64,000 nt of DNA from Mobula hypostoma (taxonomy: Eukaryota), in NCBI RefSeq assembly GCF_963921235.1, contig NC_086108.1, positions 12,772,001 to 12,836,000 on the forward strand, in the 5' to 3' direction. The position numbers were made by a program, and so were the translations under genes. Below the pieces are notes generated by a model. It saw nothing but the letters and a program-made list of their open reading frames with translations, did no database searches and was not told the DNA's origin. Every line of letters begins with the position of its first letter. The stretch's first letter is position 1. Positions 1,492 through 64,000 of this stretch are shown piece by piece.

Positions 1492-15408
<13,917 letters not shown>

Positions 15409-23889: not shown

Positions 23890-25185
23890 GGAGGCTGTGT
23901 CCTCTAGTATTAGACTCGGCCACTACAGGAAACCTCCTCTTCCATATCCACTCTATTGAGACCTTTCAATATTCGCTGGGTTTCAATGAGAACCCCTCTT
24001 CTGAATTCCAGCCAGAACAGGCCCAGAGCCATCATACGCTGCTCCTCTGATAATCCTTTCAATCCCAGAATCATTTTTGTGAACATCCTTTGAACCCTCT
24101 CCACTTCCTTTCTTAGACGAGGACCCCAAACTGCTCACAATACTCCAAGTGAGGCCTCGCCAGTCTCAACATTACATCCTTGTTTTTATACTCTAGTCCT
24201 CATGAAACAAATGCTAATATTGCAAGTGCCTTCCTCACCACAGACTCAACCTACAAACTAACTTTGGGAATTCTGCACAAGGACTCCGTTCATTTGTGTC
24301 TCCATTTTTTTGTATTTCAGGAAATAGTCAACCCTTTCTTTTCTTCAACTGAAGTGCGTGACCATACACTTCCCGATACTGTATTCTATCTGCCACTTCT
24401 TTGCCCGTTCTTCTAATACGGCTTAAGTCCTTCTGCAGTCTCTCTGCTTCCTCAACTCTACCTGCCCCTCCACCTGTCTTTGTAATGTCTGTAAACTTTG
24501 CCATAAAGCTATCCATTCCATCGTCCAGACCATTAACCTATAACAGAAGAAGTGGTCCCAACATTGGCCTCTGCGGAACACTGGCAGCCAACCCAAAACA
24601 ACTCTCTCTATTCCAACTCCTTGCCTTCTGCCAATCAGCTCTCTGTGCAAGTATCTTTCCTGAAATGCCATGGGCTCTTAACTTGTTAAGCAGTCTCATG
24701 TTTGGCACCTCGTCAAAGACCCTCAGATAACCCAAGTACACAACATCCAACGATATTCCTTTGCCTATCCTGCTTGCTTTTTCTTCAAAGAATTCAAATA
24801 GATTCGCCAGGCAAGATTTTCCCTTAAGGAAACCATGCTGGCTTCAGCCTATTTTAATCATGTGCCTCCAAGTACCCCAAAACCACATCCATAACAATGG
24901 ACTCCAACATCTTCCCAACCACTGAGGTCAAAGTAATTTCCTTTCTTCTGCCTCTCTTCCTTCTTGAAGAGTGGATGACATTTTTCAATTTTCCAGTCCT
25001 CCAGAACCATGCCAGCAACTAGTGCCATTTGAAAAATCATTACTAATGCCTCCACAATCTCTTCAGCCACCTCTTTCAGAACCTTTGTGTGTACACCATC
25101 TGGTCCAGGTGACTTATCTACCTTCACACCTTTCAGTTTCCCAAGAACCTTCTCCCTAGTAATGTCAACTTCACTCACCACTGCC
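23890..25185 (-). mobile_element. Degraded CR1 LINE
   Basis: VDKSPGPDGVH, VFDEVPNMRLL, KFTDITK, ERVQRMFTKMI. Confidence 0.88.
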
Positions 25186-25382
25186 CCGTGACACTGTCAA
25201 GCCTCCAGCATACCACTACTATCTGGATCATCTACAATATTCCATTGCTCCATTTTCAGATGCCAAGTTCATACCCTCTGGAATCAGCTACCTCTCTGCT
25301 ACAGCTTTCCTCTCCAGCAGGTGTATGGTCACCGGCCACAATGTTTCTGTCTCTGTCTTTGTTTGGAGCCCTAGGGATACAT

Positions 25383-26010
25383 ATTAGATTAGATTAGATT
25401 ATGAGGACACACAGTCCTCTTTTATTGTCATTTAGTAATGCATGCATTAAGAAGTGATACAATGTTCCTCCAGTGTGATATCACAGACAGACCAAGACTG
25501 AAAAACGGACAAAAACTACATAATTATAACATATAGTTACAACAGTGCAAGCAATACCGTAATTTGAGGAAGAACAGACCATGGGCACGGTAAAAAATGA
25601 GTCTCAAAGTCTCTTGAAAGTCCCATCATCTCACACAGACGGGAGAAGGAAGAAAACTCTCCCTGCCATAAGCTTCCAGCGCCGCAAACTTGCCGATGCA
25701 GCATCCTGGAAGCACCCGACCACAGTCCGACTCTGAGTCATCCGAAAACTTCGAGCCTCTGACCAGCCCTCTGACACCGAGCATCGAGCACCATCTCTGC
25801 CGAGCGCTTCGACCCCAGCCCCGGCCGCCAGCAACAGGCAAAGCCAAGGATTTGGGGCCTTCCCCGTCGGAGATTCTCGATCGCACAGTAGTAGCGGCAG
25901 CGAACTGGGCATTTCAGAAGTTTCTCCAGATGTTCCTCTGTGCCTCTCACATCTGTCTCCATCAAATCACAATTGTGAATGGCATCCTACTTACAAATAT
26001 GACAACATTA
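25383..26010 (-). mobile_element. Non-autonomous LINE-tailed repeat ending in (tctaa)n
   Basis: Minus strand ends aatgacaataaaagaggac...(aatct)n; GC-rich body with no recognisable ORF. Confidence 0.55.
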
Positions 26011-26329
26011 ACCAGAGAGGCACACAGCATGCTGCATAAAGACCAGGGGTTCTGTACAACCGATGCTCGTAGATGTGGTATGCACCCTGTGGTCTGCCAT
26101 TGATAAATTACTGTGGTTTTTAAGTGCAGTGCAGCGTTCCATTAAATCTGCCCCCTCCCACAGTAAAGCACTCCCTCAGTGTGATCCATAAGACAAGTGG
26201 AATGTAAAACAAACAAGTGTGAGGTGTGGCACTTCAGTAAGACCAACAGGGTAGGTGTCACACAGTGAATGGTAAGGCACTGAGGAGTCCATTGGAACAA
26301 AGGGATCTGGGATTAGAGGTTCATTAGAG

Positions 26330-27220
26330 GTGGATGCTAAGAGGATGCAGGGTGACTTGGATAGGTTGGGTGAGTGGGCAAACTCATGGCAGATGCAATT
26401 TAATGTGGATAAATGTGAAGTTATCCACTTTGGTGGCAAAAATAGGAAAACAGATTATTATCTGAATGGTGGCCGATTAGGAAAAGGGGAGGTGCAACGA
26501 GACCTGGGTGTCATTATACACCAGTCATTGAAAGTGGGCATGCAGGTACAGCAGGCGGTGAAAAAGGCGAACGGTATGCTGGCATTTATAGCGAGAGGAT
26601 TCGAGTACAGGAGCAGGGAGGTACTACTGCAGTTGTACAAGGCCTTGGTGAGACCACACCTGGAGTATTGTGTGCAGTTTTGGTCCCCTAATCTGAGGAA
26701 AGACATCTTTGCCATAGAGGGAGTACAAAGAAGGTTCACCAGATTGATTCCTGGGATGGCAGGTCTTTCATATGAAGAAAGACTGGATGAACTGGGCTTG
26801 TACTCGTTGGAATTTAGAAGATTGAGGGGGGATCTGATTGAAACGTATAAGATCCTAAAGGGATTGGACAGGCTAGATGCAGGAAGATTGTTCCCGATGT
26901 TGGGGAGGTCTAGAACGAGGGGTCACAGTTTGAGGATAGAGGGGAAGCCTTTTAGGACCGAGGTTAGGAAAAACTTCTTCACACAGAGAGTGGTGAATCT
27001 GTGGAATTCTCTGCCACAGCAAACTGTTGAGGCCAGTTCATTAGCTATGTTTAAAAGGAAGTTAGATATGGCCCTTGTGGCTACAGGGGTCAGGGGGTAT
27101 GGAGGGAAGGCTGGGTTCTGAGTTGGATGATCAGCCATGATCATAATAAATGGCGGTGCAGGCTCGAAGGGCCGAATGGCCTACTCCTGCACCTATTTTC
27201 TATGTTTCTATGTTTCTATA
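26330..27220 (+). mobile_element. Very young 5'-truncated CR1 nested in an older CR1
   Basis: Intact 263-aa ORF2 C-terminus; (tttctatg)n tail. Confidence 0.95.
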
Positions 27221-33989: not shown

Positions 33990-34519
33990 AGTAATTTTAT
34001 CTCCAGTCATCATTTTTCCCCTTCCCCCTTCTTCATTTCCCCATTCTGGCCTCATATCTCTTCTCCTCACCTGCCTGTCACCTCTGTCTCCTTTCTCTTC
34101 CTTCCCTTTCTCCAATAATCCACTCTCCTCTCCGATCTGATTCCTTCTTCTTCAGACCTTTACCCCCTCCACCTCTCAGCCTTTCACTTCATCCCCTCCC
34201 CTTCCCCACCCATCTGGCTTCACCGTCACCTTCAAGCTTATCCTCATTCCCCTCGCCCCACCTTCATATTCTGGCATTTTAGACCATAAGTTATAGGAGC
34301 ACAATCAGGCCATTTGGCCCATCAAGTCTGCTCTGCCATTCCATCATGACTGATCCATTTCCTTCTCAGCCCCAGTCTCCTGCCTTCTCCCCGCATCCCT
34401 TCATACCCTGACCAATCAAGAATCTATCAACCTCTGCCTTCACCCTTCCTTTCCAGTCCTGAAGAAGGGTCGCAGCCCGAAATACCGACTGTTTATTCAT
34501 TTCCACGGATGCGGTCTGA
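33990..34519 (+). mobile_element. Penelope-like 3' UTR/tail (with CR1 tail inserted ~34281-34440)
   Basis: Pyrimidine-rich UTR like that of 49570-49860, then degenerate hammerhead at 34454-34491. Confidence 0.65.
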
Positions 34520-34677
34520 CCTCCAAGAGGGCCACAACCTTGTCGTGGTTTGGAGGCTCGTGTGCCTCAGTGACCGGAGAGCTATGCTGGCTGCAGTCAG
34601 GGCTTTATACTTTGGCTCTTGGTAGGGTCACCCATGCCGAACAGGTCAAAGGGTAGAGGCCAGACTAAGAGTGGTCC
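34520..34677 (+). ncRNA. Predicted HDV-like self-cleaving ribozyme
   Basis: P1 cctccaa/ttggagg, P2 gggccac/gtggtcc, P3 acc/ggt, L3 ttgtcgt, P4 gcctc/gaggc, J4/2 ctaa (C34665), all in the HDV order. Confidence 0.7.
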
Positions 34678-34934
34678 TCCAAGTTTGGGGTTTCAGCTCA
34701 GGGCTAGGAACCCTGGCTGGTAAAACAGAAATGTTACGGAAAAAGCAATGAAGAATCCTTCCACATCTGAGTGTGATGGTACTCCTGAGTCTCCACCCGG
34801 GACTTACATGACCGGCAGTAGTGAAAACCAAAAGGGAGCTACTGACATGATGAAGGAAGCCCTGAACACCACCAGAGATAGAGGTCCTTCATTGCTGCCC
34901 CAAACACCAGCGGTGTAACCGGCAGCAAGTATAA
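34520..34934 (+). mobile_element. Full-length ~415-bp RTE-derived non-autonomous retroposon
   Basis: 11-bp TSD atgc(g/t)gtctga (34509-34519/34935-34945); RTE-like 5' UTR; 3' end resembles an RTE ORF terminus (family consensus RWRTFIAALNASGVTGSK). Confidence 0.85.
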
Positions 34935-35183
34935 ATGCTGTCTGAATTACTGAGTTGTGTACTGTATCACTGTCGAGCTGAATTATGAAACTTAAATCCT
35001 GGACAAAAACTTGAATCTTCCTGATTTTTATCTCAACTGTTTCTGTTATTGTCCTTGTTTCTTTTTCAGTTCAGCATTCATAACTTTTCCCCAAGCTCTA
35101 TAATTGCCGGGCGCACAGCTTTGTGTTCATGAACACTCATTCATCCATATTACCACATTCCTTGGACTGTGGATCGGGATGCT

Positions 35184-43783: not shown

Positions 43784-45577
43784 GTGAGCGGATTAGGACA
43801 GTCTGCGCATCTGTCTGACAGTAACCTGTTTGTCTGTGCAATCTTGCCGGCGCGGTCCATCCGTCTATCTGTAATTTATGTGTGGGTCCTAAGTGCCATT
43901 TGTTCCCTGTCTACAATTTAAAACTGTTAGTTGGTTGTTAAGCACAATTTACCAATACTCAGTTCAATATTCTTATTTAAATAAGTTTTTTTTAATCGTG
44001 TTGTTTGGAAGGTTGGTTTTCTTTATCGTGACAGTACTTGGAATGCAATCTATGGAAAGATTTCACATCTGGACATGAATCGCAGAATTCCTGCATTGTA
44101 GTTAAAATGTTATTTTGAGATTTGGCTTTTAGCTCTTTACATCGACAGGACGACTTTAAACCGCTCTTTCACGATTTTCTTTAAAACAGTAATTTCAGCA
44201 AAACCTTACGCCTGGTGGAAAAACTGTGAGATTTAAACCCACAATTCCTCTCCTATCCCTCAGTTCTCGGTGTGTGGTTTCGGGAATACTAGATGAGGGT
44301 GAATCAGTAATCACCATCCAGGAGAATACAGTAACTATAGGGACTGCGTTGTCCTGGTTTGTATAATCTGTGCAGTAACAATTTGGAACTGGTTGTCCTG
44401 GTCTGTATCATCTGGGCAGGAACTATTAAGGAGACGATTGTCCTCCGGGTCTGTATACAATTTGGCCTGCATTGTCTGGTTCTTATAATGCAAGCAGAAA
44501 GAATTGGAGGCTGCAGTGCCCTGGTCTGTCTAATCCAGGAAATTACAATTCGAGGCTGCATTGTCCAGAATGTATAATCCGGGCAGCAATGATTCCGTGC
44601 AGCATTTTCGTGGTCTCTATAATCTGAGCAGTAGCAATTTGGAGTACATTTTCCTGGTCTGTATATATCGGGCATTAACAATTCAGATCTGTATTGTCCT
44701 GGTTTCTTTAATCTGGGAGTAACAAATTGGGACTGTGTTATACTGGTAAGTATAATTAGGGCAATAACAGTTCGGGCCTGTGTTGTCTTGTCGTTATGAT
44801 CTGGCCAGTATCAAATCGGGGCAGCATTGTCCTAGTCTATATAATCCGGACCGTAACATTTAGGAACTCCAATGTCCTGGTCTCTATAATCCAGAATGTA
44901 ACAATTAGGAACTGCATTGTCCTGGTCTGTATGAACCAGGTAGTATCAATTCAGAGCTACATTATCGAGGTCTGTATAATCTAGACAGTAACAATTCAGG
45001 TCTGCACTCAGGTCTTATTAGGGAGAGAGAGAACCTGTGGGTTGCCAAATGCTGGATGAATTGCAGTAGTCTTCGGGATAACTGCAAGGTCTGTGCCTTT
45101 GCTATTGTTTAGCTCACGTTTGTGCTCGGTAGCTGGTGAGCATTTTGTTTTGCCGGTGGGGGGGAGAGGGGAGCTGGGGGGGGGGTACTTGGGGTTCTCA
45201 TGATTAACTGTCATTCATTCTTTGGGGCACTTCTCTGTTTTCGTGGATGTTTTGCGAAGAAAAAGCATTTCCAGATGTATATTGTATACATTTCTCTGAC
45301 ATTAAATTGAACCTTTGAACTAGTCTCTATAATCTGGTCAGTAACAATTTGGGGTTTGCTTTGTCCTGAACTGTATAATCCAGCAGTAACAATATGGGGC
45401 TGCATTGTCCTTGACTGTACAGTACGGGCAGTAACAATTCAGAATTGGGTTGTCCCTGTCTGTATAATCCAGGAAGTAAATTTTTGGGGCTGCTGTGTCC
45501 TGGTCTGTATAATCTGGACAGTAACAGTTCAGGGATTAATTGTCTTGGTCTGTATAATCCGGGCCATAATAATCTGT

Positions 45578-45713
45578 TCACAAATGAGAAAATCTGCAGA
45601 TGTTGCAAATCCAAGTAGCACACAGAAAATGCTGGAGGAACTCAGCAGGCCAGGCAGCATCTGTGGAAAAGAGTACAGTCAACGTTTCAGACTGAGACCC
45701 TTCAACAGGACTG
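45578..45713 (-). mobile_element. Penelope-derived short element with mutated hammerhead
   Basis: Minus strand cagtc-ctgttga-agggtctcagtct-gaaac-gtt-gactg. Confidence 0.78.
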
Positions 45714-46276
45714 TATCCTGTACATTAACAATTTGGGACTGCATTTTCCTGGACTGTATAATCTGGGCAGTAACAATCAGTGATTGCATTGTTTTGGTCT
45801 GTATAATCCAGGCAGTAACAATTCAGGACTGCATTGTACTGGTCTGTATAATCTAGAGAGTAGCAGTTCAGGGCTCCTGTTCTGCATAATCCAGGCAATG
45901 CATCGTCCTGGTATAATCTCAGCAGTAAATATTTGAGACTACGTTGAATTGGTCTGTAAAATCCGGGCAGTAACTATTCTGGACTGCATTGTCCTGGTCT
46001 GTATCAACAAGGCAGCAACAATTCGTTGCTGAATTGTTCTGGTCTGTAGTTTCCAGGCCACAACAATTCGACACAGCATTGCCTTGATCTGCATAACACA
46101 AGGAAAAACAATTCGCGGCTGTATTGTCCTGGTCAGTAGAATCTGGTCAGTATCAATCTGGAACTGTATTTTCTTGATCGACATAATTGAGACAATAACG
46201 ATTTGGACCTGCATTGCCCTGATCTGTATAACTGGGGCATGAGCAATTCAGGACTGCATTGTTCTGACCTTTATTA

Positions 46277-47236
46277 TAGAAACATAGAAACATAGAAAAT
46301 AGGTGCAGGAGTAGGCCATTCGGCCCTTCGAGCCTGCACCGCCATTTATTATGATCATGGCTGATCATCCAACTCAGAACCCAGCCTTCCCTCCATACCC
46401 CCTGACCCCTGTAGCCACAAGGGCCATATCTAACTTCCTTTTAAACATAGCTAATGAACTGGCCTCAACAGTTTGCTGTGGCAGAGAATTCCACAGATTC
46501 ACCACTCTCTGTGTGAAGAAGTTTTTCCTAACCTCGGTCCTAAAAGGCTTCCCCTCTATCCTCAAACTGTGACCCCTCGTTCTAGACCTCCCCAACATCG
46601 GGAACAATCTTCCCGCATCTAGCCTGTCCAATCCCTTTAGGATCTTATACGTTTCAATCAGATCCCCCCTCAATCTTCTAAATTCCAACGAGTACAAGCC
46701 CAGTTCATCCAGTCTTTCTTCATATGAAAGACCTGCCATCCCAGGAATCAATCTGGTGAACCTTCTTTGTACTCCCTCTATGGCAAAGATGTCTTTCCTC
46801 AGATTAGGGGACCAAAACTGCACACAATACTCCAGGTGTGGTCTCACCAAGGCCTTGTACAACTGCAGTAGTACCTCCCTGCTCCTGTACTCGAATCCTC
46901 TCGCTATAAATGCCAGCATACCATTCGCCTTTTTCACCGCCTGCTGTACCTGCATGCCCACTTTCAATGACTGGTGTATAATGACACCCAGGTCTCGTTG
47001 CACCTCCCCTTTTCCTAATCGGCCACCATTCAGATAATAATCTGTTTTCCTATTTTTGCCACCAAAGTGGATAACTTCACATTTATCCACATTAAATTGC
47101 ATCTGCCATGAGTTTGCCCACTCACCCAACCTATCCAAGTCACCCTGCATCCTCTTAGCATCCTCCTCACTGCTAACACTGCCACCCAGCTTCGTGTCAT
47201 CCGCAAACTTGGAGATGCTGCATTTAATTCCCTCAT
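46277..47236 (-). mobile_element. Very young 5'-truncated CR1
   Basis: Nearly identical reverse complement of 26330-27220. Confidence 0.96.
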
Positions 47237-47392
47237 GCATAACTGAGACAGTGACAAATAGGGGCGTCCTTGTGCTGTTGTCTATAATATAGCAATAACA
47301 ATTAGGAACTGCATTGTTCTGGTCTGTATAACCTGGACAGTAACAATTCTGTGCTGCATTGTTCTCCTCCATGTAATCCAGAAAGCAACAAT

Positions 47393-48120
47393 TCAAGCAA
47401 CACACATCAAAGTTGCTGGTGAACGCAGCAGGCCAGGCAGCATCTCTAGGAAGAGGTACAGTCGACGTTTCGGGCCGAGACCCTTTGTCAGTACTAACTG
47501 AAAGAAGAGCTAGTAAGAGATTTGAAAGTGGGAGGGGGAGGGGGAGATCCAAAATGATAGCAGAAGACAGGAAGGGGAGGGATGGAGCCAAGAGCTGGAC
47601 AGGTGATTGGCAAAAGGGATGTGAGAGGATCATGGGACAGGAGGTCTGGGGAGAAAGACAAGGGGGGGGGAAACCCAGAGGATGGGCAAGGGGTATAGTC
47701 AGAGGGACAGAGGGAGAAAAAGGAGAGTGAGAGAGAATGTGTGTATAAAAATAAATAACGGATGGGGTACGAGGGGGAGGTGGGGCATTAGCGGAAGTTA
47801 GAGAAGTCAATGTTCATGCCATCAGGTTGGAGGCTACCCAGATGGTAAGGTGTTGTTCCTCCAACCTGAGTGTGGCTTCATCTTTACAGTAGAGGAGGCC
47901 GTGGATAGACATATCAGAATGGGAATGGGACGTTGAATTAAAATATGTGGCCACTGGGAGATCCTGCTTTCTCTGGCGGACAGAGCGTAGGCGTTCAGCG
48001 AAACGATCTCCCAGTCTGCGTTGAGTCTCGCCAATATGTAGAAGGCCACATCGGGAGCACCGGATGCAGTATATCACCCCAGCCGACTCACAGGTGAAGT
48101 GTCGCCTCACCTGGAAGGAC
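47393..48120 (-). mobile_element. 5'-truncated Penelope-like element (GIY-YIG endonuclease and tail)
   Basis: GVIYCIRCSRCGLLHIGET motif; small deletion near the ORF end; hammerhead with a core mutation at ~47459-47496. Confidence 0.9.
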
Positions 48121-49469
48121 CTGCAACAATTCAAGAATGTGTTGTCTTGAGCTGTATAATCCAGGACTGCATCCTCCTGCTCAGCACAATCGGGGCAGTA
48201 ACAATTCAGACTGCAGTGTTCTGCTCCAGATAATCTAAGCTGTAAATATTCGAGACTACATTGCATTGGTCTGTCTAATCTGGGCAGTAACAATTCGGGA
48301 CTGCATTGTTTTGGTCTGCATATTCCAGGCAGTAACATTTCACTGCTGTATTGTCCTATGCTGTATAATGCAGCCTGAAACAATTGGATAGTCAGTAACA
48401 ATTTGGGGCTGCATTGTTCTGGTCTGTATAATCCAGGCCGTATCAATTAGAAACTGTTTTGTCCTGGTCTCTGTAATCCTTGCAGTAACAATTTGGAACT
48501 GTATTGGCCTGGTCTGAGTAATTGGGTAGTAACAATTTGGGACTATATTGTACTGGTCTGAATACTCCAGGCAGTAACAAGTCTAGGCTGCTTTGTCCAG
48601 TTTTGTATAATCCAGGAAGTAACAAACCTAGTAGCATTTACCTCACCTGTATAATCTGGGCAGTAACAATTGGGTACTGCATTGTACTGCTGTGTAATCA
48701 AGGCAGTAACAACTTGGGTCTGAATAATCCTGGTCTGGAAAATCCGGGACGTAACAATTCAGGACAGCATTGCCCTGGTCTGTATAATTGGAGAGGTAAC
48801 AATTCAGGACTGCTTTGTCCTGATCTGTATCATCCAGGCAGTAACAATTTGAAACTGCATTCTCCTGAGGTCTCTATGAATCTGATAGCAACAATTTGCT
48901 GCTGCATTGTCCTGGTCTGTACAATCCAAGCAACAATAATTTTTGGTTACATTGTCCTGGTCTTCAAAATCTGGTCAGTAACAATTCGGGACTACATTGT
49001 ACTGGCCTATATAATCTGGACAGTAATAATTCGGGTTTGCATAATGCAGGCAGTAACAATTCAGGGCAACATTGTACTGATCTGTTATAATCCAGCCTAT
49101 AATAATTGAGAGTGAATTGTCTTGGTCTCTATCAACTCGTCAGTAACAATACAGGTGTGCATTGTCCTGGTCTGTATCATCTGGACAGTAACAATTCAGG
49201 ACGGCATTGTACTGGTCTGTATAATCCGGGAAGTACCAGTTCAGGACTCCATTGTCCTGGTCTATACAATATTAGGCAGTAACAATCTAAGACTGCGTTG
49301 TCTTGGAATACATAATTGAAGCAATAACAATTCGAGTTTGCATTGTACTGGTCTCTATATTCTTGGCAGTAGCAATTTGGGCCTGCGTTTTTCTGGTCTG
49401 TATAATCCGGGCAGTAACAATTCGGGGCTCCATTGTACTGTTCTGTATAATCTAACAGTAACATTTAGG

Positions 49470-50592
49470 AAACATACATCAAAGTTGCTGGTGAACGCAG
49501 CAGGCCAAGCAGCATCTATAGGAAGAGGCGCAGTCGACGTTTCAGGCCGAGACCCTTCGTCAGGACTAACTGAAGGAAGAGTGAGTAAGGGATTTGAAAG
49601 CTGGAGGGGGAGGGGGAGATGCAAAATGATAGGAGAAGACAGGAGGGGGAGGGATAGAGCCGAGAGCTGGACAGGTGATAGGCAAAAGGGGATACGAGAG
49701 GATCATGGGACAGGAGGCCTAGGGAGAAAGACGGGGGGGGGGCGACCCAGAGGATGGGCAAGAGGTATATTCAGAGGGACAGAGGGAGAAAAAGGAGAGT
49801 GAGAGAAAGAATGTGTGCATAAAAATGAGTAACAGCTGGGGTACGAGGGGGAGGTGGGGCCTAGCGGAAGTTAGAGAAGTCAATGTTCATGCCATCAGGT
49901 TGGAGGCTACCCAGACGGAATATAAGGTGTTGTTCCTCCAACCTGAGTGTGGCCTCATCTTTACAGTAGAGGAGGCCGTGGATAGACATGTCAGAATGGG
50001 AATGGGATGTGGAATTAAAATGTGTGGCCACTGGGAGATCCTGCTTTCTCTGGCGGACAGAGCGTAGATGTTCAGCAAAGCGGTCTCCCAGTCTGCGTCG
50101 GGTCTCACCAATATATAAAAGGCCACATCGGGAGCACCGGATGCAGTATATCACCCCAGTCGACTCACAGGTGAAGTGATGCCTCACCTGGAAGGACTGT
50201 TTGGGGCCCTGAATGGTGGTAAGGGAGGAAGTGTAAGGACATGTGTAGCACTTGTTCCGCTTACACGGATAAGTGCCAGGAGGGAGATCAGTGGGGAGGG
50301 ATGGGGGGGACGAATGGACAAGGGAGTTGTGTAGGGAGCGATCCCTGCGGAATGCAGAGAGAGGGGGGGAGGGAAAGATGTGCTTAGTGGTGGGATCCCG
50401 TTGGAGGTGGCGGAAGTTACGGAGAATAATATGTTGGACCCGGAGGCTGGTGGGGTGGTAGGTGAGGACCAGGGGAACCCTATTCCTAGTGGGGTGGTGG
50501 GAGGATGGAGTGAGAGCAGATGTATGTGAAATGGAGGAGATGCGTTTAAGAGCAGAGTTGATAGTGGAGGAAGGGAAGCCCCTTTCTTTAAA
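49470..50592 (-). mobile_element. 5'-truncated Penelope-like element (Cys-rich linker, GIY-YIG, 3' tail)
   Basis: Open frame with CKRNKCYTC...GVIYCIRCSRCGLLYIGETRRRLGDRFAEH...GMNIDFSNFR*. Confidence 0.93.
49531..49568 (-). ncRNA. Minimal type-I hammerhead ribozyme motif
   Basis: uaguc-CUGACGA-agg(gucucgg)ccu-GAAAC-GUC-gacug. Confidence 0.75.
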
Positions 50593-52605
50593 GCATCTGC
50601 AGAATTCCTGTTGTTTAGTAACATTTAGGAACTATATTGTTCTGGTCTGCATAATCTGGACTATAATAATTTGGGGCTGCATGCTCCTGGTCTTCATCTT
50701 CCAGGTCGTAACAATTCTGAGCTACATTGTATTAGCCTGTATAATTCAGGCAGTAACAAACCAGAACTGTATTGTCCTGGTCTGTATCAACCAGGCAGTA
50801 ACAATTCCTGGCTGTTTTGTCCTGGTCTGTATAATCCAGGTAGCAACAATTCAAGACAGCATTTCCTCGGTCTGAATAATCCAAGCTGCAATAATTCAGG
50901 GCTGAATTGTCCTAACCTGTCTCATTGAGGCAGTAACAATTCGGGGCTGCATTGCCCTGGTCTTTACAACACGGACAGTAACAACTAGGGTTACATTGTC
51001 TGGGTCTGCGTAATCCATACAGTAACAATTCGAGACTGTATTCTCCTGGTCTGTAGCAACAAGGCAGTAACAATCAGCAAAAGTATTGTCTGGGTTTGCA
51101 TAATCCATACAGTAACAATTCGGGACTGCATTCTCCTGGTCTGTAGCAACAAGACAGTAACAAGTCGTGGCTGAATAGTTCGAAACGATCCTGGCAGCAA
51201 CAATTCTACACAGTATTGTCTTGGTCTGCATAACCCAGGCAGAGACAATTTGTGGCTGAATTCTCCTGGTCTGTATAATCCGGTCAGTAACAATTCGGTA
51301 CTGCTTTGTCCTGGTCTGCGTAATTGGTACAGTAATAACTGGGAATTGCATTGCCTTGGTCTGTATAATCCGGGCAGTAATAAGTTGGGACTGCATTGTC
51401 AAGGTCTGTATAAACTAGCAGCAACAGTTCTTGGCTGCTTTGTTCTGATCTATAAAGTCAGGACGGTAAGAATTTGGGACTATATTGTTCGGGTCTGTAT
51501 AATCTGGACAGTATTAATTTGGGGCTGCATTGTCCAAGCTACATAAACCTGGCAGGAGCAATTTGCTGCTGCATTGTACTGCTCTGTATAATCCAGGCAG
51601 TAGCAACTCGGGATAATATTGTACTGATCTGTATAAACCGGACATTAATAATTCGGGACTGAATTGTCCTGGGAAGTATTAACCTGTCAGTAACAATTCG
51701 GGTGTGCGTAGTCCCGGTCTGTGTCGTCCAGACAGTAACAATTCAAGACTGCATTGCATTGGCCTGTATAATTTCTGCAGTAAAAATTTGGCCCTGCATT
51801 CTCCTGGTCTGTATAATCCAAGCAGCAACGATTTGAGACAACATTGTTCTGGCCTTCCTAATCTAGGTAGTAACAATTCAGGGCTGCATTGTTCATGTCT
51901 GTATAATCCAGACAGCAACAATTTGAGACTGCATCCTCCTGGTCTGTTTAATCGAGACAGTGAAAATTCAGGACTGCATTGTCCTTGTCTGCATAATCGG
52001 GGCAGTAATAATTCAGGAGTGCATTGTACTGATCTATGTCTGCCAGGTAGTAACAATTTGAAATTGTATTGTTCTGGTCTGTATAAGATGGGCAGTAAAA
52101 ATTCCAGGCTCTATTATCCAGGCCTCCGTAAAGCTAGCAGAAATAACTCACAGCTGCATTATAGTGGTCTGTATATTCCGGGCAGAAATATTTCAGGGCT
52201 GCATTGTCCTCCTGGTCTGTATAATTCTGGCAGTAAAAATTCGAGGCTGCATTGTCCTGGTCTGTGCATATCCAGGCAGTAAGCATTCAGGGCTGCATTG
52301 TTCTAGTCTGTATAATCCGGGCAGTAACAATTTGGGGACTGCATTGTACTAGTCTGTATAATCTGGACAGTAATAATTCGGGGCTGTATTGTCCTGGTCC
52401 ATATAATCCAGGCAGTAACAGTTAGAGAATGGTTTCTCCTGATCTGTATAATCCAGGCCGTAATAATTCGGGACTGCATCGGCCTGGTCTGCAACAATTT
52501 GGGACTGCATTGTCCAGGTCTGTATAAACCAGACAGTAACAATTTGCTGCTGCATTGTTGTGGTCTGTATATTCCGGCCAGAAACAATTCAGGGCTGCAT
52601 TGTTT

Positions 52606-53135
52606 TCCTGTCTCTCTGTCTAGGTACCATATCCGATGCGGACTTTGGTGACCATGGTTTTCCATATAGACCTATCCTTCATTTTTTGGATGACTTCCAT
52701 TTCCTCGATGTGTAGCCACCTGACTATGTTATTGATGTACATAAGCTGAGGTCTTCCTCTAGGTTTGCTCCCCTCAATCTTTCCGGAGAGTATGAGTTTT
52801 TCTAGTTTATCTTTCCACATGATGTGTCCTAGGAATCTGAGTTGTCTTTCTCTTATTGTTGGTATGAGTGATCGAACTGCTTGGGCTCTTCTGAGAACTT
52901 CTTCATTTGATGTGTGTGTGGTCCATGATATTTTTAACATTCTTCTGTAGAACTATAACTCAGCTGCTTCTAGTCTCTTTTCCATTGCTGGAGAAATGGT
53001 CCAACATTCACTTCCATAAGTCAGGGTAGAATAAATGTAGCACTGCAATATTCTGTTTTTAGTCTACGTGCTCATCTTTCTGTCTGTTAATATTTCTTCA
53101 TTTTTTAGAAAGCTTCTTTCACCATTGCTATTCTG
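52606..53135 (-). mobile_element. RTE (BovB-like) LINE 3' fragment
   Basis: YGSECWT...MLKISWTTHTSNEEVL...QLRFLGHI...GKIEGSKPRGRP. Confidence 0.9.
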
Positions 53136-53316
53136 TATTTATTTTGTATTGTATTGTTTTCCTAGGATGTTTAATTGGGGCAATAAAAATTCTGGACTGC
53201 ATTGTTCTGGTCTGTATCACCCTTGTAGTAACAGATCAAGGCTATGTTGTCCTGGTCTGCATAATCCAGGCAGTAACAATTCTGAACTGCATTGTACTGG
53301 TCTGTGCAATCTGTGT

Positions 53317-53618
53317 TGGCACGTGGCCAAGTGGTTAAGGCATTCGTCTAGTGATTTGAAGGTCACTAGTTCGAACCTCGGCTGAGGCAACGTGTGTGTC
53401 CTTGAGCAAGGCATGTAACCACACATTGCTCTGCAACGACACCAGTGCCAAGCTCTGTGGGTCCTAATGCCCTTCCTTTGGACAACATCGGTGGCGTGGA
53501 GAGGGGAGAATTGCAGCATGGGCAACTGCTGGTCTTCCATACAACCTTGCCCAGGCCTGCGCCCTGGAAACCTTCCAAGGGCAAATCCATAGTCTAATGA
53601 GACTAACGGATGCCTATA
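53317..53618 (+). mobile_element. tRNA-derived SINE with CORE-like segment
   Basis: Box A tggccaagtgg 53324-53334, box B gttcgaacc 53369-53377; second copy at 18244-18545. Confidence 0.87.
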
Positions 53619-53949
53619 GATCTGGACATTAACACTTCGGGTCTGCATTGTTGTGGTCTACAGTAACCAGATACTAATAATTTGGGACTGCATTTTCCTG
53701 GTCTGTATAATCCTGACAGTAACAATTCGGCCCTACATTGTCTTGGCCTGTATAGTCCAGGCAGTAACAATTGGAGGCCGCATGGTCCTGGTCTTCCTCA
53801 TCCAAGATGTAATAATTCAGGACTGCATTGTCCTTGTCTGTATCAACCAGTCAGTAAAAATTCCAGTCTGTATTGTCCTGGTCTGTATAATCTAGCAGAG
53901 ACATTTCGGGACTGCATTGTCCTGGTCTTTATCATTCAAGCATCAACAA

Positions 53950-56900
53950 TTTGAGCCTGTGTTGGACAGTGTTGGAGATGCAATTGAAGTGATCCTGCAC
54001 AGGTCCTGAGCAGAGCTTGAGAAATCCTGTCTCCATAAAAGAGAGGTTCCGTCTAGCAGACCGGTCATTGTGGGAGCAGTCTGAGTCAGAGTGGTAAGGC
54101 TTTGACTCAACAGGTTTCGGCAAGGCATGTAAGTAAGTTTATTTTGTTATTCTTATTTAACTCTTGAAAGTATAGGTCATATGTTGCAGTGCTAGTTTTC
54201 TGCTGTGGGTGTCAGATGTGGGATTTTCAGGAGACTTGCAGCCTCCCCAATGGCTGCATCTGCACCAGGTGAATCGAGTTGCAGCTCCTTAGAGATCGCG
54301 TTAGGGAACTGGAGCTGCACCTCAATGACCTTCGGCTTGTTAGGGAAAGTGACAAGGTGATAGACAGGAAGCACAGAGAGGCAGTCATCCCAAGGCTACA
54401 GAAGACTGTCAAGAAAAAGAAGGGAAAATGTCAAGACAGTGGAGAGCACCCTGTGGCCAGCCCCTCAACAGCAACTGCTCCATTTTGAGTCCTGTTGGGG
54501 GGAATGACCTACCTGAGGGAAGCAACAGTGGTCATGCCTCTGGGACTGAGTCTCACCCTGTGGCTCAGAAGGGTAGGGAACTGAACAGAATGGCAGCAGT
54601 AATAGGGGACTCTATAGTTAGGGAGACAGTTGAGCAATTCTGTGGACGCCAAAAAGAAACACAGATGGTAGTTTGTCTCCCAGGTACAGTGTCTGTGATG
54701 TTTCTGAATGCATCCACAATATCCTGAAGAAGGAGAGTGAGCAGCCTGAATGAGTTAGTTAGAAAAAGGGAGGAGGTCCTGAAAACAGAAAAGAAGGAGT
54801 TAGGAAGGAAGTTGAGAAGCAGGACCTCAAGGGTAGTAATCTCGGAATTGCTGCCTGTGCCATGTGACAGTGAGGATGGGAATGGAATGAGCTGGCAGAT
54901 AAATATATGGCTGAAGAATTGGAGCAGGAGACAAGGATTCAGATTTCTGGATAATTGGGGTCTCTTCTGGGGCAGGTGGGACCTGTACAAAAGGGACGGG
55001 TTGCACTTGAATCCGAGTGGGACCAATATCCTTGCGGGCAAGTTTACTAAAGCTGTTGGGAGTGTTTTAAACTAATATGATAGGGGGTGGGAACCAGTAC
55101 GATAGAGCTATAGATGTGCCAGCAGGTTTACAAGTAGATGATGGGTGTAACATGAATGTAAGGAAAGAGAAGCCATTGATTGGGTACAAATACAGACAGA
55201 GCAAAGAGTTAAATGGTACCACAGGGTCAAAATTCAAAAGGCGAAGAATGCAGGACTGAAGGAATTGTATTTAAATGCATGTAGTATTGGGAATAACGTG
55301 GATGGAATCATGGTGCAATTAGAAATTAGTCAATATGACACGGGCATCACTGAGTCATAGTTGAAAGAAGGTCAAAGTTGAGAGCTTAATATCAAATGGT
55401 ATACTTTGCATCAAAAGAACAGGCAGGAAGGCATAGGTAGTGGTGTTGGTAAGAGATGGAATTACATGTTTAGAAAGAGGTTATATAGGATCGGAGAATG
55501 TTTAATCTTTGTGGGTGGAGTTAAGAAACTGTAAGGATTATAAAAACCATTATGGGAATCATACAACCCTCCAAATATTAGTCAAAGTTGCAAAGGGAGC
55601 TGGAAAAGGCATGTAATAAGAGTAATGACACAATTGTAATGGGGGACTTCAATATTCAAGGGAAAAATCACATTGGTGTTGGATCGCAAGAGAGGGAATT
55701 TATTGAATGCCTACAAGATGGCTTTTTAGAGCAGGTTGGGCTTGAGCCCTCTGGTGGAAAGGCTATCTTATATTGGGTGTTGAGTAATAATCCAGATTTT
55801 ATTAGGGAGCTTAAGGTAAAGGAACCCTTAGGAAACAGTGATCATAATATGATTGATTTCATATTGCAATTTGAAAGGGAGAAGCATAAGTCAGATGCAT
55901 TATTATCACAACGGAATAAAGGGAATTACAGAGGCATGAGAGAGGAGCTTGTCCAGACGGATTAGAGGGGGACACTGAAGGGAATGACTGCTGAGCAGAG
56001 ATGACTGAAGTTTCTGGGAAAAGTTCACAAGGTGCAGGATAGATATATCCCACAGACGATGAAATTCTCAAATTTTAGGGGCAGGCAACCGTGGCTGAAA
56101 GGGGAAGTTAAGGACTGCATAAAAGCCAAAGAAAGGGCATATAATGTAGCAAAAGTGACTGGGAAGTTGGATGATTGGGAAGTTTTTAAAATCCAACAAA
56201 AATCCATTAAAAAACTATAAGAAGGGAGAAGATGAAACAGGAGAGCAAACTAGCCAATAATATAAAGCAGGATACTAAACGTTTTTTTCAGTTATATGAA
56301 GAGTGAAAGTAAGGTAAGAGTTGATATTGGACCTCCGGAAAATAATGCTGGTGAGGCAGTAATGGGGGACAAAGAAATGGTTGATGAATTTAATAAGTAT
56401 TTTTATTCAGTCTTCACTGTGGAAGACATTAGCAGTGTGCCAGAGGTCCGTGAGAGTCAGGGAGCAGGAGTGAGTGCAATTGTTATTACAAAGGAAAACA
56501 TGCTAGGCATACTGAAAGGTCTTAAAGTGGATAAGTCACCTGGACCAGATGAACCTCATCCGAGAGTCCTGCGAGAGGTTGCTGAAAAGATAACGGATAT
56601 ATTGGTCATGATCTTTCAAGAATCACTTGATTCGTTAGAAAATAAAAGCAAGGAAATAATGCTGAGGCTTTACAAGACACTAACCCGGCTACACTTGGAG
56701 TACTGTCGACAGTTTTGGGCCGCATATCTCAGAAAGGATGTGTTTGTCATTGGAGAGAGTCCAGAGGAGGTTCAAGAGGATGATTCCAGGAATGAAGGGT
56801 TTAACATATTAGGAGCTTTAGGCCTGTATTCACTGGAGATAAGGTGGAGATGAAGAGGTTGTTTTCAATGGTGGGGGGGTGTCCAGAACTAGAGAGCACA

Positions 56901-57190
56901 GCCTCAGAATTGACGGATGATCCTTTAGAACAGAGCTAAGAAGGAATTTCTTTAACGAGAGAATAGTGGATTTGTGGCATGCTCTGCCACAGACAACTAT
57001 GGAGGCCAAGTCCTTGGGTATATTTAAAGCAAGAATTGATAGTTTCCTGATTGGTCAGGGCATGAAAGGTAATGGTGAGAAAGCAGGTGCAAGGGGTTGA
57101 GTGGGATCTTGGATCAGCCATGATGGAATGGAGGAGCAGACACGATGGGCTGAATGGCCTAATTCTGCTTCTATGTCTTAAGTTCTTACG
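53950..57190 (+). mobile_element. Degraded near-full-length CR1 (5' UTR, ORF1, endonuclease; RT deleted; 3' tail)
   Basis: ORF1 LQLLRDRVRELE, VIGDSIVR, DGLHLN; EN IVMGDFNI, LGNSDHN; jump FQESLDS->LENKSKEIMLRLYK at ~56632. Confidence 0.9.
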
Positions 57191-60100
57191 GTCTTTTGGT
57201 CCTTGTTTGTATAATAGAGGCAGTGACAATTCGGGACTGCATTGGCCTGGTCTGCATAAGCTTGGCAGTAACAATTCGGGGCTGTATTGTCCAAGTCTAT
57301 AAACCAGACAGTAACAATACGGCACTGCATTATCCTGGTCTGTATAATCAGGGGAGTAACAATTTGGTGCTGCATTGTCCTACTCTGTACAATCCGAGCA
57401 GTAATAATTCGGTGCTGCATTTTCCTGGTCAATATACTCCAGGTATTAACAATTTGAGTCTGTGTTGTCCCAGTCTGTATCATCATGGCGTTAATAATTT
57501 GGGATGGCAGTGTCCTGGTCTTTATAATTGGGGCTGAAATAATTCAGAAGTGCATTGATCTGGTCTGTATTATCCAGCAGTAAGAATTTCAGACTGCATT
57601 GTCCTGATGTGTGTCAACAGGGCAGTACCTATTTGGCGCTGCATTGTCCTGGTCTGTATTATCTGGGCAGTAACAATTCGAGGTTGCATTCTCCTCTTGG
57701 TCTGCATAATTAGAGTAATAACAATTCAGGGCTACAATGCCATGGTCTGTATAATCCAGACAGCAACAAATTGGGACTGCGTTGTTCAAGTCTGTATAAT
57801 AATGGCAGTAACAACTTCGGCATGCATTGTCTTAGTCTGTTTAATCGGGGCAGCAATAATTTGACACTGCATTATCCAGATCTACATGCGATCCACAGTA
57901 AACATTTGGGTCTAAATTGTCCTCCCGGTGTATAATTGGGGTGGAAAAAAATCGGAGTTGCATTGTCCTGGTCTGTACAATTCTCGTAGTAACATATCAC
58001 GGTGGCATTTTCCTTGCCTGTATAATTGGGGTAGTAACAATTTGTACTGCATTGTACTGGTCTGTTAAATCCATACAGACACAATCCGTGATTGCATTGT
58101 CTTGGTCTGCATAATCCAGGCAGTAACAATTAGGAGCTGCATTCTACTCCAGGTCACTATAATTTGGGCATTAACAATTCAGGACTGCATTTTCCTGGTC
58201 TGTATCAACAGGTCAGTAACAATTGGAGGCTGAATTGTGCTGATTTTCATAATCCAGGTAGCAACAATTCTGGACTATATTCTCTTGGTCTGCATAATCC
58301 AGGCAGTAACAATTGCATTGTCCTGGTCAGTATCAACAGGGTGGTAGCAATTAGCAGCTGCATCGTTCTGGTCTATATAATCCGGGCAGTAACAATTTGG
58401 GGTTGCATTCTACCCCAGTCAGTTCAATCGGGGCAGTAGCAACATAGGGCTGCATTGTTCTAGTCCGCGAATTGGGGCAGTAAATTTTTGGGACTGCATT
58501 ATCCTGCTCTGTATAATCTTGACAGTAACAAGTCAGGACTGCATTGTCCTGATCTGTATAATCCAGGCCGTAACAATTCGAGACTCCATTGTCCTGGTCT
58601 ACATAACCTTGGTCATAACAATTTGAGGCTGCATTGTCAAAGTCTGTATAATTGGAGCAGCAACAATTCGAGACTGTGTTGTCCAAGGCTGTATAATGCA
58701 GGCAGTAACAATCAGGGCATGTATTGTCTTGGTCTGTTTAGTCAGGGCAGCAAAAATTTGAGGCTGTATTGTTCAGGTCTACATAAGATGGGCAGTTCGG
58801 GGCTATATTGTCCTCCTGGTCTGTATTATTGAGGCAGAAAAATTTGGGGTTACATTGTCCTGGTCTCCAGAATCCTGGTAGTAACAATTTGGGGCAGCAT
58901 TTTCCCCCACCTGTATAATCAGGGTAGTAACAATCCAGGACTATATTCTATTGGTCTGTTAAATCCACACAAGCAGAATCTGTGGCTGCATTGTCCTGGT
59001 CTGTATCAATGAGACAGTGATTACTCAGGGCTGCATTCTCATGGTTGTATAATCCAGGCAGTAATGATTTGGTGCTGCATTGTGCTTGTATGTATAACAC
59101 GGGCAGCAAAAATTCAGAGATGCATCTCCTCCAGGTCGGTATAATCGAGGTAGGTACATCGTGCAACTGCATTGTCCTGGTCTGTGTAATCGGGGCAGTA
59201 AATTTTGGAGACTGCATTCTCCTGGTCTGTATAATCGTGGCAGTAACAAGTGGGGACTGAATTGTCCTGGTCTGTATAACCTGGCAGTAACTACTCAGGG
59301 TTACAGTGTCCAGGTCTGTATAATTGGGGCAGCAACAACTCGAGACTGTGTTGTCCAGGTCTTTATAATACAGCAGTAACAATTCTGGACTGCATTGTCT
59401 TGGTCAGTTTAATCGGGGCAGCAATTATTCAAGACTGCATTGTCCAAGTCTACATGTGATTGGCAGTGACAATTTGGGGCTATATTGTCCTCCTGGTCTG
59501 TGTAATTGGGGCAGTAAAAATTCGGGGTTGCATTGTCTGGGTCTGTACGATCCTGGTAGAAACACTTCAACAGCATTTTCCTTGCCTGTATAATGGGGCA
59601 GTAACAATTTGGGATGAATTGTACTAGGCTGTTAATTCCACGCTGAAACAACCCGTGACTGCCTTGTCTTGGTCTGCATAATCCAGGCAGTAAGAATTAC
59701 GAGCTGCATTTCCTATTCAGCATAGTCAGGGCAGTAACAATTGGGCACTGCATTGCCCTGGTCTGTATAACCGGGGCAGCAACAACTCGGGACTGCACTT
59801 TCATGATCCCTATAACTGGGACAGAAACAATTTGGTGCTGTGATGACCCCCGGTCTGTATAATTGGGATAGTAAAAATTTGAGGTTGCATTGTCCTACTC
59901 TGTTCCACCCTTGGTGGTAACAATTCAGGGCAGCATTTTCCTCGCCTGTTACAATTCAGGGTGCATTGTATTGGTCTCTCAAATCCACGCAGAATCAATC
60001 TGCGACTGTCTTGTCTTGGTCTGCATAATCCAGGCAGTAGCAATTAGGATTTGCACTGTCCCAGTCTGCATAATAAGGATGGTAAAAATGCAGGACTGTA

Positions 60101-63100: not shown

Positions 63101-63793
63101 AGGCAGTAACAATTCAAGAGTGTGTTGTCCTGTTCTGTTTTAGCTGGGCAATAACAATTCGGGGCTGCATTGTCCAACTCTGTATAATCAGGACAGTAAC
63201 AATAAGGGAAACATTTTCCCCCAACTCTGTACAATCCAGGGTATAAAAACTCAAGGCTACATTATCCTGTTCTGAATAAGGTGTGCAGTAACAATTCAGA
63301 GCTGCATTATCCCAATCTGTGTACTCCAGGCAGTAACAATTCAAGAGTACGTTTTCCTGGTCTGTTTTAGCTGGGCAGTAACAATTCGGGGCTATACAAT
63401 ATGCACAGTAACAATCCCAGACTCCATTACCTTGATCTGCATAATCCTGGAAGTAGCAATTTAGGACTGCATTGTCCTGATCTGTATCAACTAGTCAGTA
63501 TCAACCTGGGGCTGTATTGTCAGGGTGTGTATAATCAGGCCAGTAAAAATTCAGGACTGCATTTTCCTCACCTGTATAATCAGGGCAGTAAAAATTCTGG
63601 GCTGCATTGTCCTGGGCTGTATAATCCAGGCAATATCAATTCTGGTCTGAATTGCTCTGCTGTATATAATCCAGTCAGTAAAAATTCGAGACTGCATTGT
63701 CCTGGTCTGTACAATCCGCGGAGTAACAATCTGGGACTGCATCATCTTGGCCTGCATAATCCAGGCAGTAACAATTCGGGATTGCACTGTACC

Positions 63794-64000
63794 AGTCCAG
63801 AATCAGAGGCCACAGTTTAAGAATAAGGGGTAGAGCATTTAGAATGGAGTTGAGGAAAAACTTTTTCACACAGGGGGGTTGTGGATCTGTGGAATGCTCT
63901 GCCAAAGAAGGCAGTAGAGGCCAATTCTCTGGATTCTTTCAAGAAAGAGTTAGATAGAGCCCTTAAAGATAGCAAAGTCAAGGGATATGGGGAGAAGGCA
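63794..64000 (+). mobile_element. CR1 3' fragment (runs off the window)
   Basis: RGHSLRIRGRAFRMELRKNFFTQ. Confidence 0.85.

Follow-up and report, generated by a model that had tools for sequence, protein, structure and literature searches.

A predicted C1-type HDV-like ribozyme fold at the 5' end of an abundant SINE-like retroposon of Mobula hypostoma

In a 64,000-nucleotide stretch of the Mobula hypostoma genome (contig NC_086108.1, positions 12,772,001 to 12,836,000, forward strand; here called the window, whose own numbering is used throughout), positions 34520-34934 are one copy of a ~415-bp retroposon with ~90% identity to its family consensus. We found that the first 158-161 bases of this element probably encode an HDV-like ribozyme of the C1 type, for which self-cleavage is predicted exactly at the element's first base. 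The copy itself is a dead member of a non-autonomous non-LTR retroposon family, SINE-like but without the head derived from a Pol III gene. Taken together, the data make it fairly probable that the source copies of this family are co-transcribed with other sequences and freed by such a ribozyme.

Retroposons headed by a ribozyme are already known; what would be new here is the build of the core, the size of the ribozyme and its carrier, a SINE-like element of a vertebrate, as the C1-type core build has so far been documented otherwise only in the L1Tc/ingi elements of trypanosomatids. The literature on HDV-like ribozymes in sharks and in non-autonomous SINEs, judged partly by titles and the openings of abstracts, yielded no such ribozyme at the head of a dispersed, high-copy, SINE-like family of vertebrates. 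As the Rfam models and the classical descriptor both miss the head, thousands of copies per genome stay unlabelled in annotation. If the head cleaves, this would explain the uniform 5' end of a short retroposon that has no Pol III head, extend the C1-type core of trypanosomatids to a vertebrate, and provide a natural test of L3 length (7 or 9 nt), of a long P4 and of a downstream competitor strand in HDV-type catalysis.

A broader proposal is more tentative, and we regard it as possible: cartilaginous fishes may harbor very abundant SINE-like retroposons that lack a Pol III promoter, ride on read-through transcripts of the host and are freed by a C1-type HDV-like ribozyme whose P4 domain is large and which a downstream strand could switch off, after or before cleavage. 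If this were true, current ribozyme searches would be overlooking an entire branch of HDV-like ribozymes in vertebrates, and SINEs could in general form by an alternative route in which a ribozyme defines the 5' end.

Results and discussion

An abundant family of short retroposons with sharp ends

A search of the 3.48-Gb source genome with the window copy returned 7535 first-look candidates, 40 of which were scored; all 40 were copies of the family, with 84-87% identity, and in 36 of them the match started at query position 1-3. The family comprises at least thousands of copies in this genome, and four further copies lie within the window. Contigs of four coded runs were examined for abundance and boundaries: the family was present in 24,000-27,000 contigs from each of three public DNA-type runs, in which the flanks turn unrelated at positions 34520 and 34931, and no RNA run was listed as containing the stretch. 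When 30 loci were aligned together with their flanks, the DNA was unrelated up to the first C, and the 3' end was common to the loci, consisting of a stem-loop followed by AAGT/GTAA repeats.

Using the last 111 bases (34815-34925) as a tail query, we recovered 27 further independent loci, in which 18 copies reach position 3 or less, four start at positions 18-32 and five at positions 151-228; such a series of 5' truncations is the pattern expected from target-primed reverse transcription. A clear target-site duplication, 9-17 bp long, flanks 19 of the 44 full-length copies, and 16 of these 19 clear cases have the first C directly after the duplication, with no extra base in between. For the window copy, the limits proposed by the initial annotation (34520-34934) proved exact, being bordered by an 11-bp duplication at 34509-19 and 34935-45 (Table 1), whose 5' copy sits within an older and very abundant host repeat with loose ends at 34482-34522. 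Dispersed copies, target-site duplications, 5' truncations, a 3' end made of a structured part and a microsatellite, and the lack of a reverse transcriptase (RT) gene, all seen in this family, are hallmarks of a non-autonomous non-LTR retroposon. The duplications and sharp ends bear out the earlier description of a short non-autonomous retroposon whose first base coincides with the predicted cleavage site.

Table 1. Features of the window copy and its insertion site (window coordinates).
Feature	Position	Strand	Basis or remark
5' target-site duplication ATGCGGTCTGA	34509..34519	+	10 of 11 bases match 34935-45
P1 5' strand CCUCCAA	34520..34526	+	Its first base starts the element and is the predicted cleavage site
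J1/2 GA	34527..34528	+	Sequence
P2 5' strand GGGCCAC	34529..34535	+	Family consensus has A at the third base
P3 ACC/GGU (34537-39 with 34547-49) around L3 UUGUCGU (34540-46)	34537..34549	+	Sequence; short (S) form of L3
P1 3' strand UUGGAGG and C34557 (P1.1 partner of G34542)	34550..34557	+	Sequence; alignment of 45 heads
P4 domain	34558..34663	+	Structured insert of 87 nt, closed by the stem GCCUC/GAGGC (34564-68 with 34656-60)
J4/2 ACUAAGA, candidate catalytic C at 34665	34664..34670	+	Sequence; alignment of 45 copies
P2 3' strand GUGGUCC	34671..34677	+	Sequence; alignment of 45 heads
Second copy of the cut-site strand CCUCCAAG	34676..34683	+	Sequence alignment
Non-coding linker	34684..34747	+	Sequence
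Short ATG frame, 56 codons	34748..34918	+	ORF reading; 51 codons in the consensus
Two-tier 3' stem-loop just before the tail	34892..34928	+	-19 kcal/mol, z = -4.4
Decayed (AAGT)n tail CAAGTATAA	34926..34934	+	Sequence; other copies end in 2-4 AAGT/GTAA units
3' target-site duplication ATGCTGTCTGA	34935..34945	+	Matches 34509-19

The head of the element has the order of a nested double pseudoknot

Every pairing that the initial annotation had listed (P1, P2, P3, P1.1 and P4), together with L3 and the CUAA motif, was recovered at its proposed place between 34520 and 34677. P1 consists of seven Watson-Crick pairs (34520-26 with 34550-56), and P1.1 is the single pair G34542-C34557, in which the G belongs to L3. 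P2 (34529-35 with 34671-77) has six Watson-Crick pairs and one G.U pair in the window copy and seven Watson-Crick pairs in the consensus, which carries an A where the window copy has G. Because 8 nt are deleted just after P2 in the window copy, its P2 can be extended to 9 bp (34527-35 with 34671-79), and this longer form is the one used by the nested minimum free energy (MFE) fold (z = -2.6). In the consensus, P4 gains three more outward pairs (U.G, U-A and G-C), so that all eight of its pairs are standard, and the middle pair of this extension (34558-60 with 34661-63) is broken in the window copy. Between CUAA (34665-68) and P2 we noticed two additional bases, GA (34669-70), which the earlier description had left out.

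An alignment of 45 heads was used to follow the fold in the family. The order P1-P2-P3-L3-P3'-P1'-(P1.1)-P4-P4'-J4/2-P2', that of the nested double pseudoknot, is found both in the window copy and in the commonest state of the 45 heads. All 23 pairs of the noted structure are standard pairs in their commonest state, and 91.3% of the cells are paired, compared with at most 50% when the partners are slid against each other. With the P4 extension, the corresponding values are 26 of 26 pairs and 91% of cells, compared with at most 52% after sliding. The extended P4 leaves zero bases between P1.1 and P4 and makes J4/2 read ACUAAGA, with the candidate catalytic C in second place, a layout that we take to be closer to that of HDV.

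Several details of the core can be compared with the canonical fold. In the canonical HDV-like J4/2, the catalytic C is followed by N-R-A directly before P2; the J4/2 of the element, in which CUAAGA is near-invariant among the 45 copies, is presumably two bases longer after CUAA than those of HDV and CPEB3. L3 starts with U and has C-G at positions 5-6, as we assume to be the case in HDV and CPEB3. The P1.1 pair is G-C in 39 of the 45 copies, an orientation that we take to be reversed relative to HDV, and together with the adjacent U.U it presumably resembles CPEB3, again with the pair reversed. In 35 of 45 copies P1 opens with a C-G pair and not with a G.U wobble, which does not exclude activity, because C1 occurs in active L1Tc/ingi ribozymes (PMC4035085).

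The covariation of P1, P2 and P3 that the initial annotation had proposed to test did not emerge, as the measures equal those of shuffled alignments in the 45 copies, without any excess for either the 23-pair or the 26-pair set. No linked polymorphic sites were found among these heads, in which most of the polymorphism is CpG decay, and one candidate pairing, between A/G at position 52 and U/C at position 70, was set aside as not significant (p = 0.09). Because these copies arose from near-identical sources by neutral decay, the test is without power in either direction.

The fold is rare outside the family

We wrote a descriptor of the fold post hoc. Its helices are a P1 of 7 bp, a P2 of 6-7 bp, a P3 of 3 bp, a P4 of 5 bp and a single P1.1 pair; L3 has to begin with U and measure 6-9 nt, and CNRA plus 0-2 nt must be present. 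In 493,866 positions of real sequence, covering both strands of the window and 56 loci, the descriptor matched five times, and every match fell on the first base of a copy of the family; about 40 other, decayed heads fail at least one of its strict terms. Random sequence with the dinucleotide content of the window gave 11 matches in 6,000,000 positions, and random sequence with the composition of the element gave 2 in 3,000,000. From these rates, the chance of finding the fold with its cut site on the first base of a retroposon is ~2e-6 per site, and the true chance is somewhat higher, because the null sequences leave out the many CCUC/GAGG and GGACC/GGUCC words of the head.

L3 variants and competing helices

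Among 37 full-length copies, three forms of L3 were distinguished: 15 copies carry the S form (7 nt), 15 an extra AG (9 nt) and 7 an extra TG (9 nt). We observed no other difference linked to these forms, and divergence is ~15%, equal within and between them, so a change of 2 nt in the catalytic loop left the spread of the element unaffected. The short loop, UUGUCGU, fits a loop of ~7 nt with U first and G sixth, while 22 of the 37 copies have a 9-nt L3; in the long forms, P3 and L3 can zip together into a 7-bp hairpin.

The head can also form helices that compete with the HDV-like set. The nested MFE of the consensus head (176 nt) is -76.6 kcal/mol, against ~-69.9 kcal/mol for the HDV-like set (-58.5 plus -11.4 kcal/mol for P2) before any pseudoknot penalty. 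The second copy of the cut-site strand, CCUCCAG in the consensus, can pair with the 3' strand of P1 (94.1% of cells paired in 45 copies) or, shifted by one register, with bases 8-14 (87.6% of cells paired), and in this way competitors for both the P1 and the P2 strands are encoded just downstream of P2.

A predicted route of mobilization and its main competitor

Based on these results, we propose the following sequence of events. Source copies, having no promoter of their own, would be transcribed within longer host transcripts, in which the nested double pseudoknot made of P1, P1.1, P2, P3 and the long P4 domain would fold and cut just 5' of the first C. The released RNA would then have the element's first base as its 5' end, and the reverse transcriptase of a LINE may use the 3' stem-loop and the (AAGT)n tail for target-primed reverse transcription, producing full-length copies flanked by target-site duplications of 9-17 bp. 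In weighing this reading, we counted in favor of a ribozyme the standard pairing throughout the consensus fold, the coincidence of the boundary with the predicted cut site, the rarity of the fold, the features of L3, the precedents in other elements and the lack of a small-RNA head, and we counted against a working ribozyme the lack of an Rfam match, the lack of covariation, the many complementary words in the head, the C-G first pair, the reversed P1.1, the extra GA, the L3 variants and the competing helices.

The strongest competitor, which we nevertheless regard as unlikely, is that the first bases are a structured 5' leader, acting, for example, in RT binding, stability or translation, that an internal promoter of Pol II type starts at C1, and that the HDV-like topology is a by-product of complementary words. 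Such a leader would agree with the several mutually exclusive helices that are all fully paired in the consensus, with a nested fold of better energy than the HDV-like set, with the lack of covariation in the 45 heads, with an L3 free to vary in length and with the lack of a match to any Rfam model. It would leave to chance that a complete fold has its cut site exactly where the element begins (~2e-6 per site, with no other match in 494 kb). The junction with the flanking DNA speaks against it as well: copies derived from capped RNA often carry an extra 5' base, and none stands between the duplication and C1 in 16 of the 19 cases.

Comparison with known ribozyme-headed elements

The predicted ribozyme, which remains our preferred reading of the head, can be compared with several characterized systems. 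A close likeness is with trypanosomatids. In L1Tc/ingi, NARTc, RIME and SIDER elements, as proposed for ours, the ribozyme forms the first bases of dispersed elements of LINE type or of short non-coding ones (PMC3185411, PMC4035085), and the L1Tc/ingi and SIDER ribozymes are active, cleave at C1, have P1 G-C pairs opposite to those of HDV and R2, and differ in the number and composition of their P1.1 pairs (PMC4035085). P1.1 is a single pair in the ribozyme of L1Tc (L1TcRz), which a downstream sequence inhibits by refolding it (PMC3185411). The element shares with this group the C1 cleavage site, predicted in its case, the reversed P1 G-C pairs, the single-pair P1.1 and, with L1Tc, a downstream sequence able to refold the head. 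The likeness to L1Tc noted at the outset is borne out in part, for the C1 start, which the L1Tc/ingi ribozymes have together with a single-pair P1.1 (PMC4035085, PMC3185411). There are also clear differences, as the L1Tc ribozyme is 77 nt long, has a short P4 and is found in protist hosts, whereas the head of the element is ~160 nt long, has a P4 domain of 97 nt and is found in a vertebrate; the likeness is one of core build, and sequence homology is not part of the comparison. For the L1Tc/ingi ribozymes, the authors of PMC4035085 considered the classical structure-based descriptor of Webb et al. too restrictive.

In R2 elements and the R2 SIDEs, which are short and internally deleted, self-cleavage from a co-transcript sets the 5' end, and the same logic is proposed here (PMC3774820, PMC3414825). 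R2 SIDEs have no ORF and keep the ribozyme and the RT-binding 3' end. R2 ribozymes vary greatly in P4 and J1/2; the catalytic C is fixed together with just four more positions, and the G of L3 is important (PMC3774820). R2 and its SIDEs are site-specific in 28S rDNA and have a G.U or 28S-derived P1, whereas the element is dispersed and flanked by target-site duplications.

HDV-like ribozymes are also found at the 5' end of RTE, baggins and R2 elements that lack promoters, and of non-autonomous elements derived from these (PMC6765202, PMC3414825), and the RTE and baggins elements that carry them are co-transcribed (PMC6765202). Those of insects (drz-Agam-2 family, RF01788) are, like the element, dispersed non-LTR retroposons with a large ribozyme that bears a peripheral domain, and they are freed by this 5' ribozyme from intron or read-through RNA (PMC6765202, PMC4908430). 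Their peripheral domain is located in J1/2, whereas that of the element is in P4, and RF01788 has no match to the head. The mosquito RTE-type ribozyme requires at least a short J1/2 spacer (PMC4908430); this spacer is GA in the family and is lost in the window copy through its longer P2. In other cases the same logic is served by another class of ribozyme: Perere-3 of Schistosoma mansoni, of the RTE clade, has a twister at its 5' end (PMC8501958), and the hammerhead SINE-like elements of schistosomes have a small self-cleaving ribozyme 5'.

The precedent of L1Tc raises a second alternative, in which the first ~160 bases would have a dual function, being an internal promoter that starts at C1 and, at the same time, an HDV-like ribozyme that rescues read-through transcripts. 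We consider this quite improbable. The Pr77 region of L1Tc is both promoter and ribozyme (PMC3383444), the core is of the L1Tc type in its C1 start and single-pair P1.1 (PMC4035085, PMC3185411), and the downstream strand could sequester P1' in the manner of the L1Tc downstream attenuator. On the other side, the trypanosomatid promoter is of DPE type and has no demonstrated counterpart in the head of the element.

Searches for known small RNAs and ribozymes

No match to a curated covariance model (HDV_ribozyme, drz-agam-2-2 and related) was obtained on the head. In the whole window, no Rfam family reached the gathering score; on the head and its surroundings (34450-34750), no Rfam family, including tRNA, 5S, 7SL and snRNA, appeared at E<=10, and three other copies gave no family at E<=1. 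A genome search with RF01788 and RF00094 produced no match among the 34 and 84 first-look candidates scored, respectively. The 3' half of the element showed only sub-threshold archaeal C/D-box models, and ARAGORN detected no tRNA in the element. The lack of a tRNA and of any small-RNA family on the head makes a Pol III-gene head unlikely, so that the element is not a classical Pol III SINE.

The least credible alternative, and a very improbable one, is that the element is an ordinary Pol III SINE with a head from an unrecognized or diverged small RNA gene and a Pol III start at C1. It would share with SINEs the precise 5' end, the short length and the high copy number, and the consensus has weak A-box-like (~+44) and B-box-like (~+175) words, but a type 2 Pol III promoter has its boxes closer to +1 and to each other than these words are, and the searches gave neither an ARAGORN tRNA nor a tRNA, 5S, 7SL or snRNA match at E<=10.

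The 3' end and the partner reverse transcriptase

The CUGCCC/GGGCAG stem of the 3' stem-loop is present in the family alignment, and the stem-loop is likely the handle for the partner reverse transcriptase. Contrary to the earlier description, the element is not entirely free of reading frames: an ATG frame of 56 codons occupies 34748-34918 in the window copy, and the consensus has a 51-codon frame (read from locus L011:1512-1664, minus strand). In a protein search, no longer relative of the 51-residue consensus frame was found, with four word candidates, none of which was scored.

The initial annotation read the element as an internally deleted RTE derivative, with an RTE-like 5' UTR joined to an RTE-like ORF end; on that reading, an autonomous LINE of the RTE clade would share both of its ends. 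Using the tail query, the flanks and an RT search of the genome, we found no LINE that shares either end of the element, and the reading gained no support. All 40 matches scored with the tail query (34815-34925) were family copies, among them truncated copies with unrelated upstream DNA, and in the window there were no further (AAGT)n tails. Several candidates were examined and rejected. Two insertions, at loci L036 and L042, turned out to be an unrelated young LINE 3' fragment. The genome search with RVT_1 gave 150 matches of one young family, of which the one copy inspected is L1-like, with an A-rich tail, unlike the element. The only other (AAGT)n-tailed sequence in the sample, L056:1623-2290, is a chimera in which a 3' fragment of the family is joined to another repeat and to the initial 360 nt of a young repeat of 555 nt, and not a LINE partner.

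The AT-rich tetramer tail of the element and its short 3' end would be compatible with mobilization by the RTE clade, for which Malik and Eickbush reportedly described both features in 1998. In copies mobilized by RTE, a T stretch precedes the duplication by ~10 nt, and the first base of the duplication is T (PMC6007223). Of the 18 duplications used for this comparison, 6 start with T, and a T/A enrichment at -11 to -18 is weak. The window copy and those at L016 and L026 lie in the same abundant host repeat, with insertion points no more than 3 nt apart and ~10 nt downstream of TTTATT, and this shared point of entry fits a target preference.

Copies and insertion sites of the retroposon family in the window

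Besides the copy at 34520-34934 (+), the 64-kb window holds four further copies of the family, the ~415-bp non-coding retroposon that carries an HDV-like ribozyme fold at its head and an (AAGT)n tail, a density much higher than that suggested by the genome-wide lower bound. The minus-strand copy beginning at 10612 still satisfies the full fold descriptor, a post hoc pattern of the HDV-like fold.

One older, very abundant repeat hosts three independent family insertions, those of the window, L016 and L026 (two further loci of the same genome), at most 3 nt apart. At the shared site the host repeat reads ...TTTATTCC..CCATAGATGCTGCCTGA...; a T-rich stretch lies about 10 nt upstream of this apparent insertion hotspot.

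Features of the window and of fetched loci
Feature	Location	Strand	Remark
Family copy	window 12319-11958	-	
Family copy	window 39821-39438	-	
Family copy	window 9270-8944	-	
Family copy	window 10612-10373	-	full fold descriptor satisfied
Host-repeat flanks of window copy	34440-34519 and 34935-34960		likewise L016, L026 flanks
CR1-type 8-mer tails, (CTATGTTT)n	window 27193, 28217, 46276		
45-bp satellite arrays, long	within window 44300-63800		
Insertion inside family copy	L036:949-1477		young LINE 3' fragment
Insertion inside family copy	L042:1003-1464		young LINE 3' fragment
Young L1-like LINE family	G000:C1:229470347-229474300 (L067)		149 similar places
Chimeric retrocopy	L056:1623-2290		
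Young ~555-bp repeat family	L062-L066, about 1500-2055 of each (oriented)		
tRNA-like match, sub-threshold	L015:1287-1367		24.9 bits, E = 0.13

LINE sequences and a chimeric retrocopy

The insertions in L036 and L042 are the same LINE 3' fragment (97.5% mutual identity over 323 bp); they face opposite ways and interrupt the family sequence at almost identical points (~258-274). The best 150 RVT_1 matches of the genome all come from the L067-type family, which has an A-rich tail; its longest open frame has 1317 residues, and the commonest length is 1264.

The L056 retrocopy is composed of a piece of another repeat, a family 3' fragment spanning from about position 323 to the family end, and nucleotides 1-360 of yet another repeat, 555 nt long, and it carries an (AAGT)n tail; this arrangement looks like template switching by an enzyme that uses (AAGT)n tails.

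Other repeats

Copies of the young ~555-bp family are 96-98% identical, are flanked by target-site duplications of ~9-13 bp, end without a poly(A) or microsatellite tail, and are open in one frame over their whole length (~190 codons); the initial genome search gave 4800 first-look candidates for it. The tRNA-like match adjoins a copy of the ribozyme-fold family and probably marks where a tRNA-derived SINE has its head. Much of the window's last 20 kb is satellite DNA with a 45-bp unit, in which periods of 90 and 135 bp form a higher order.
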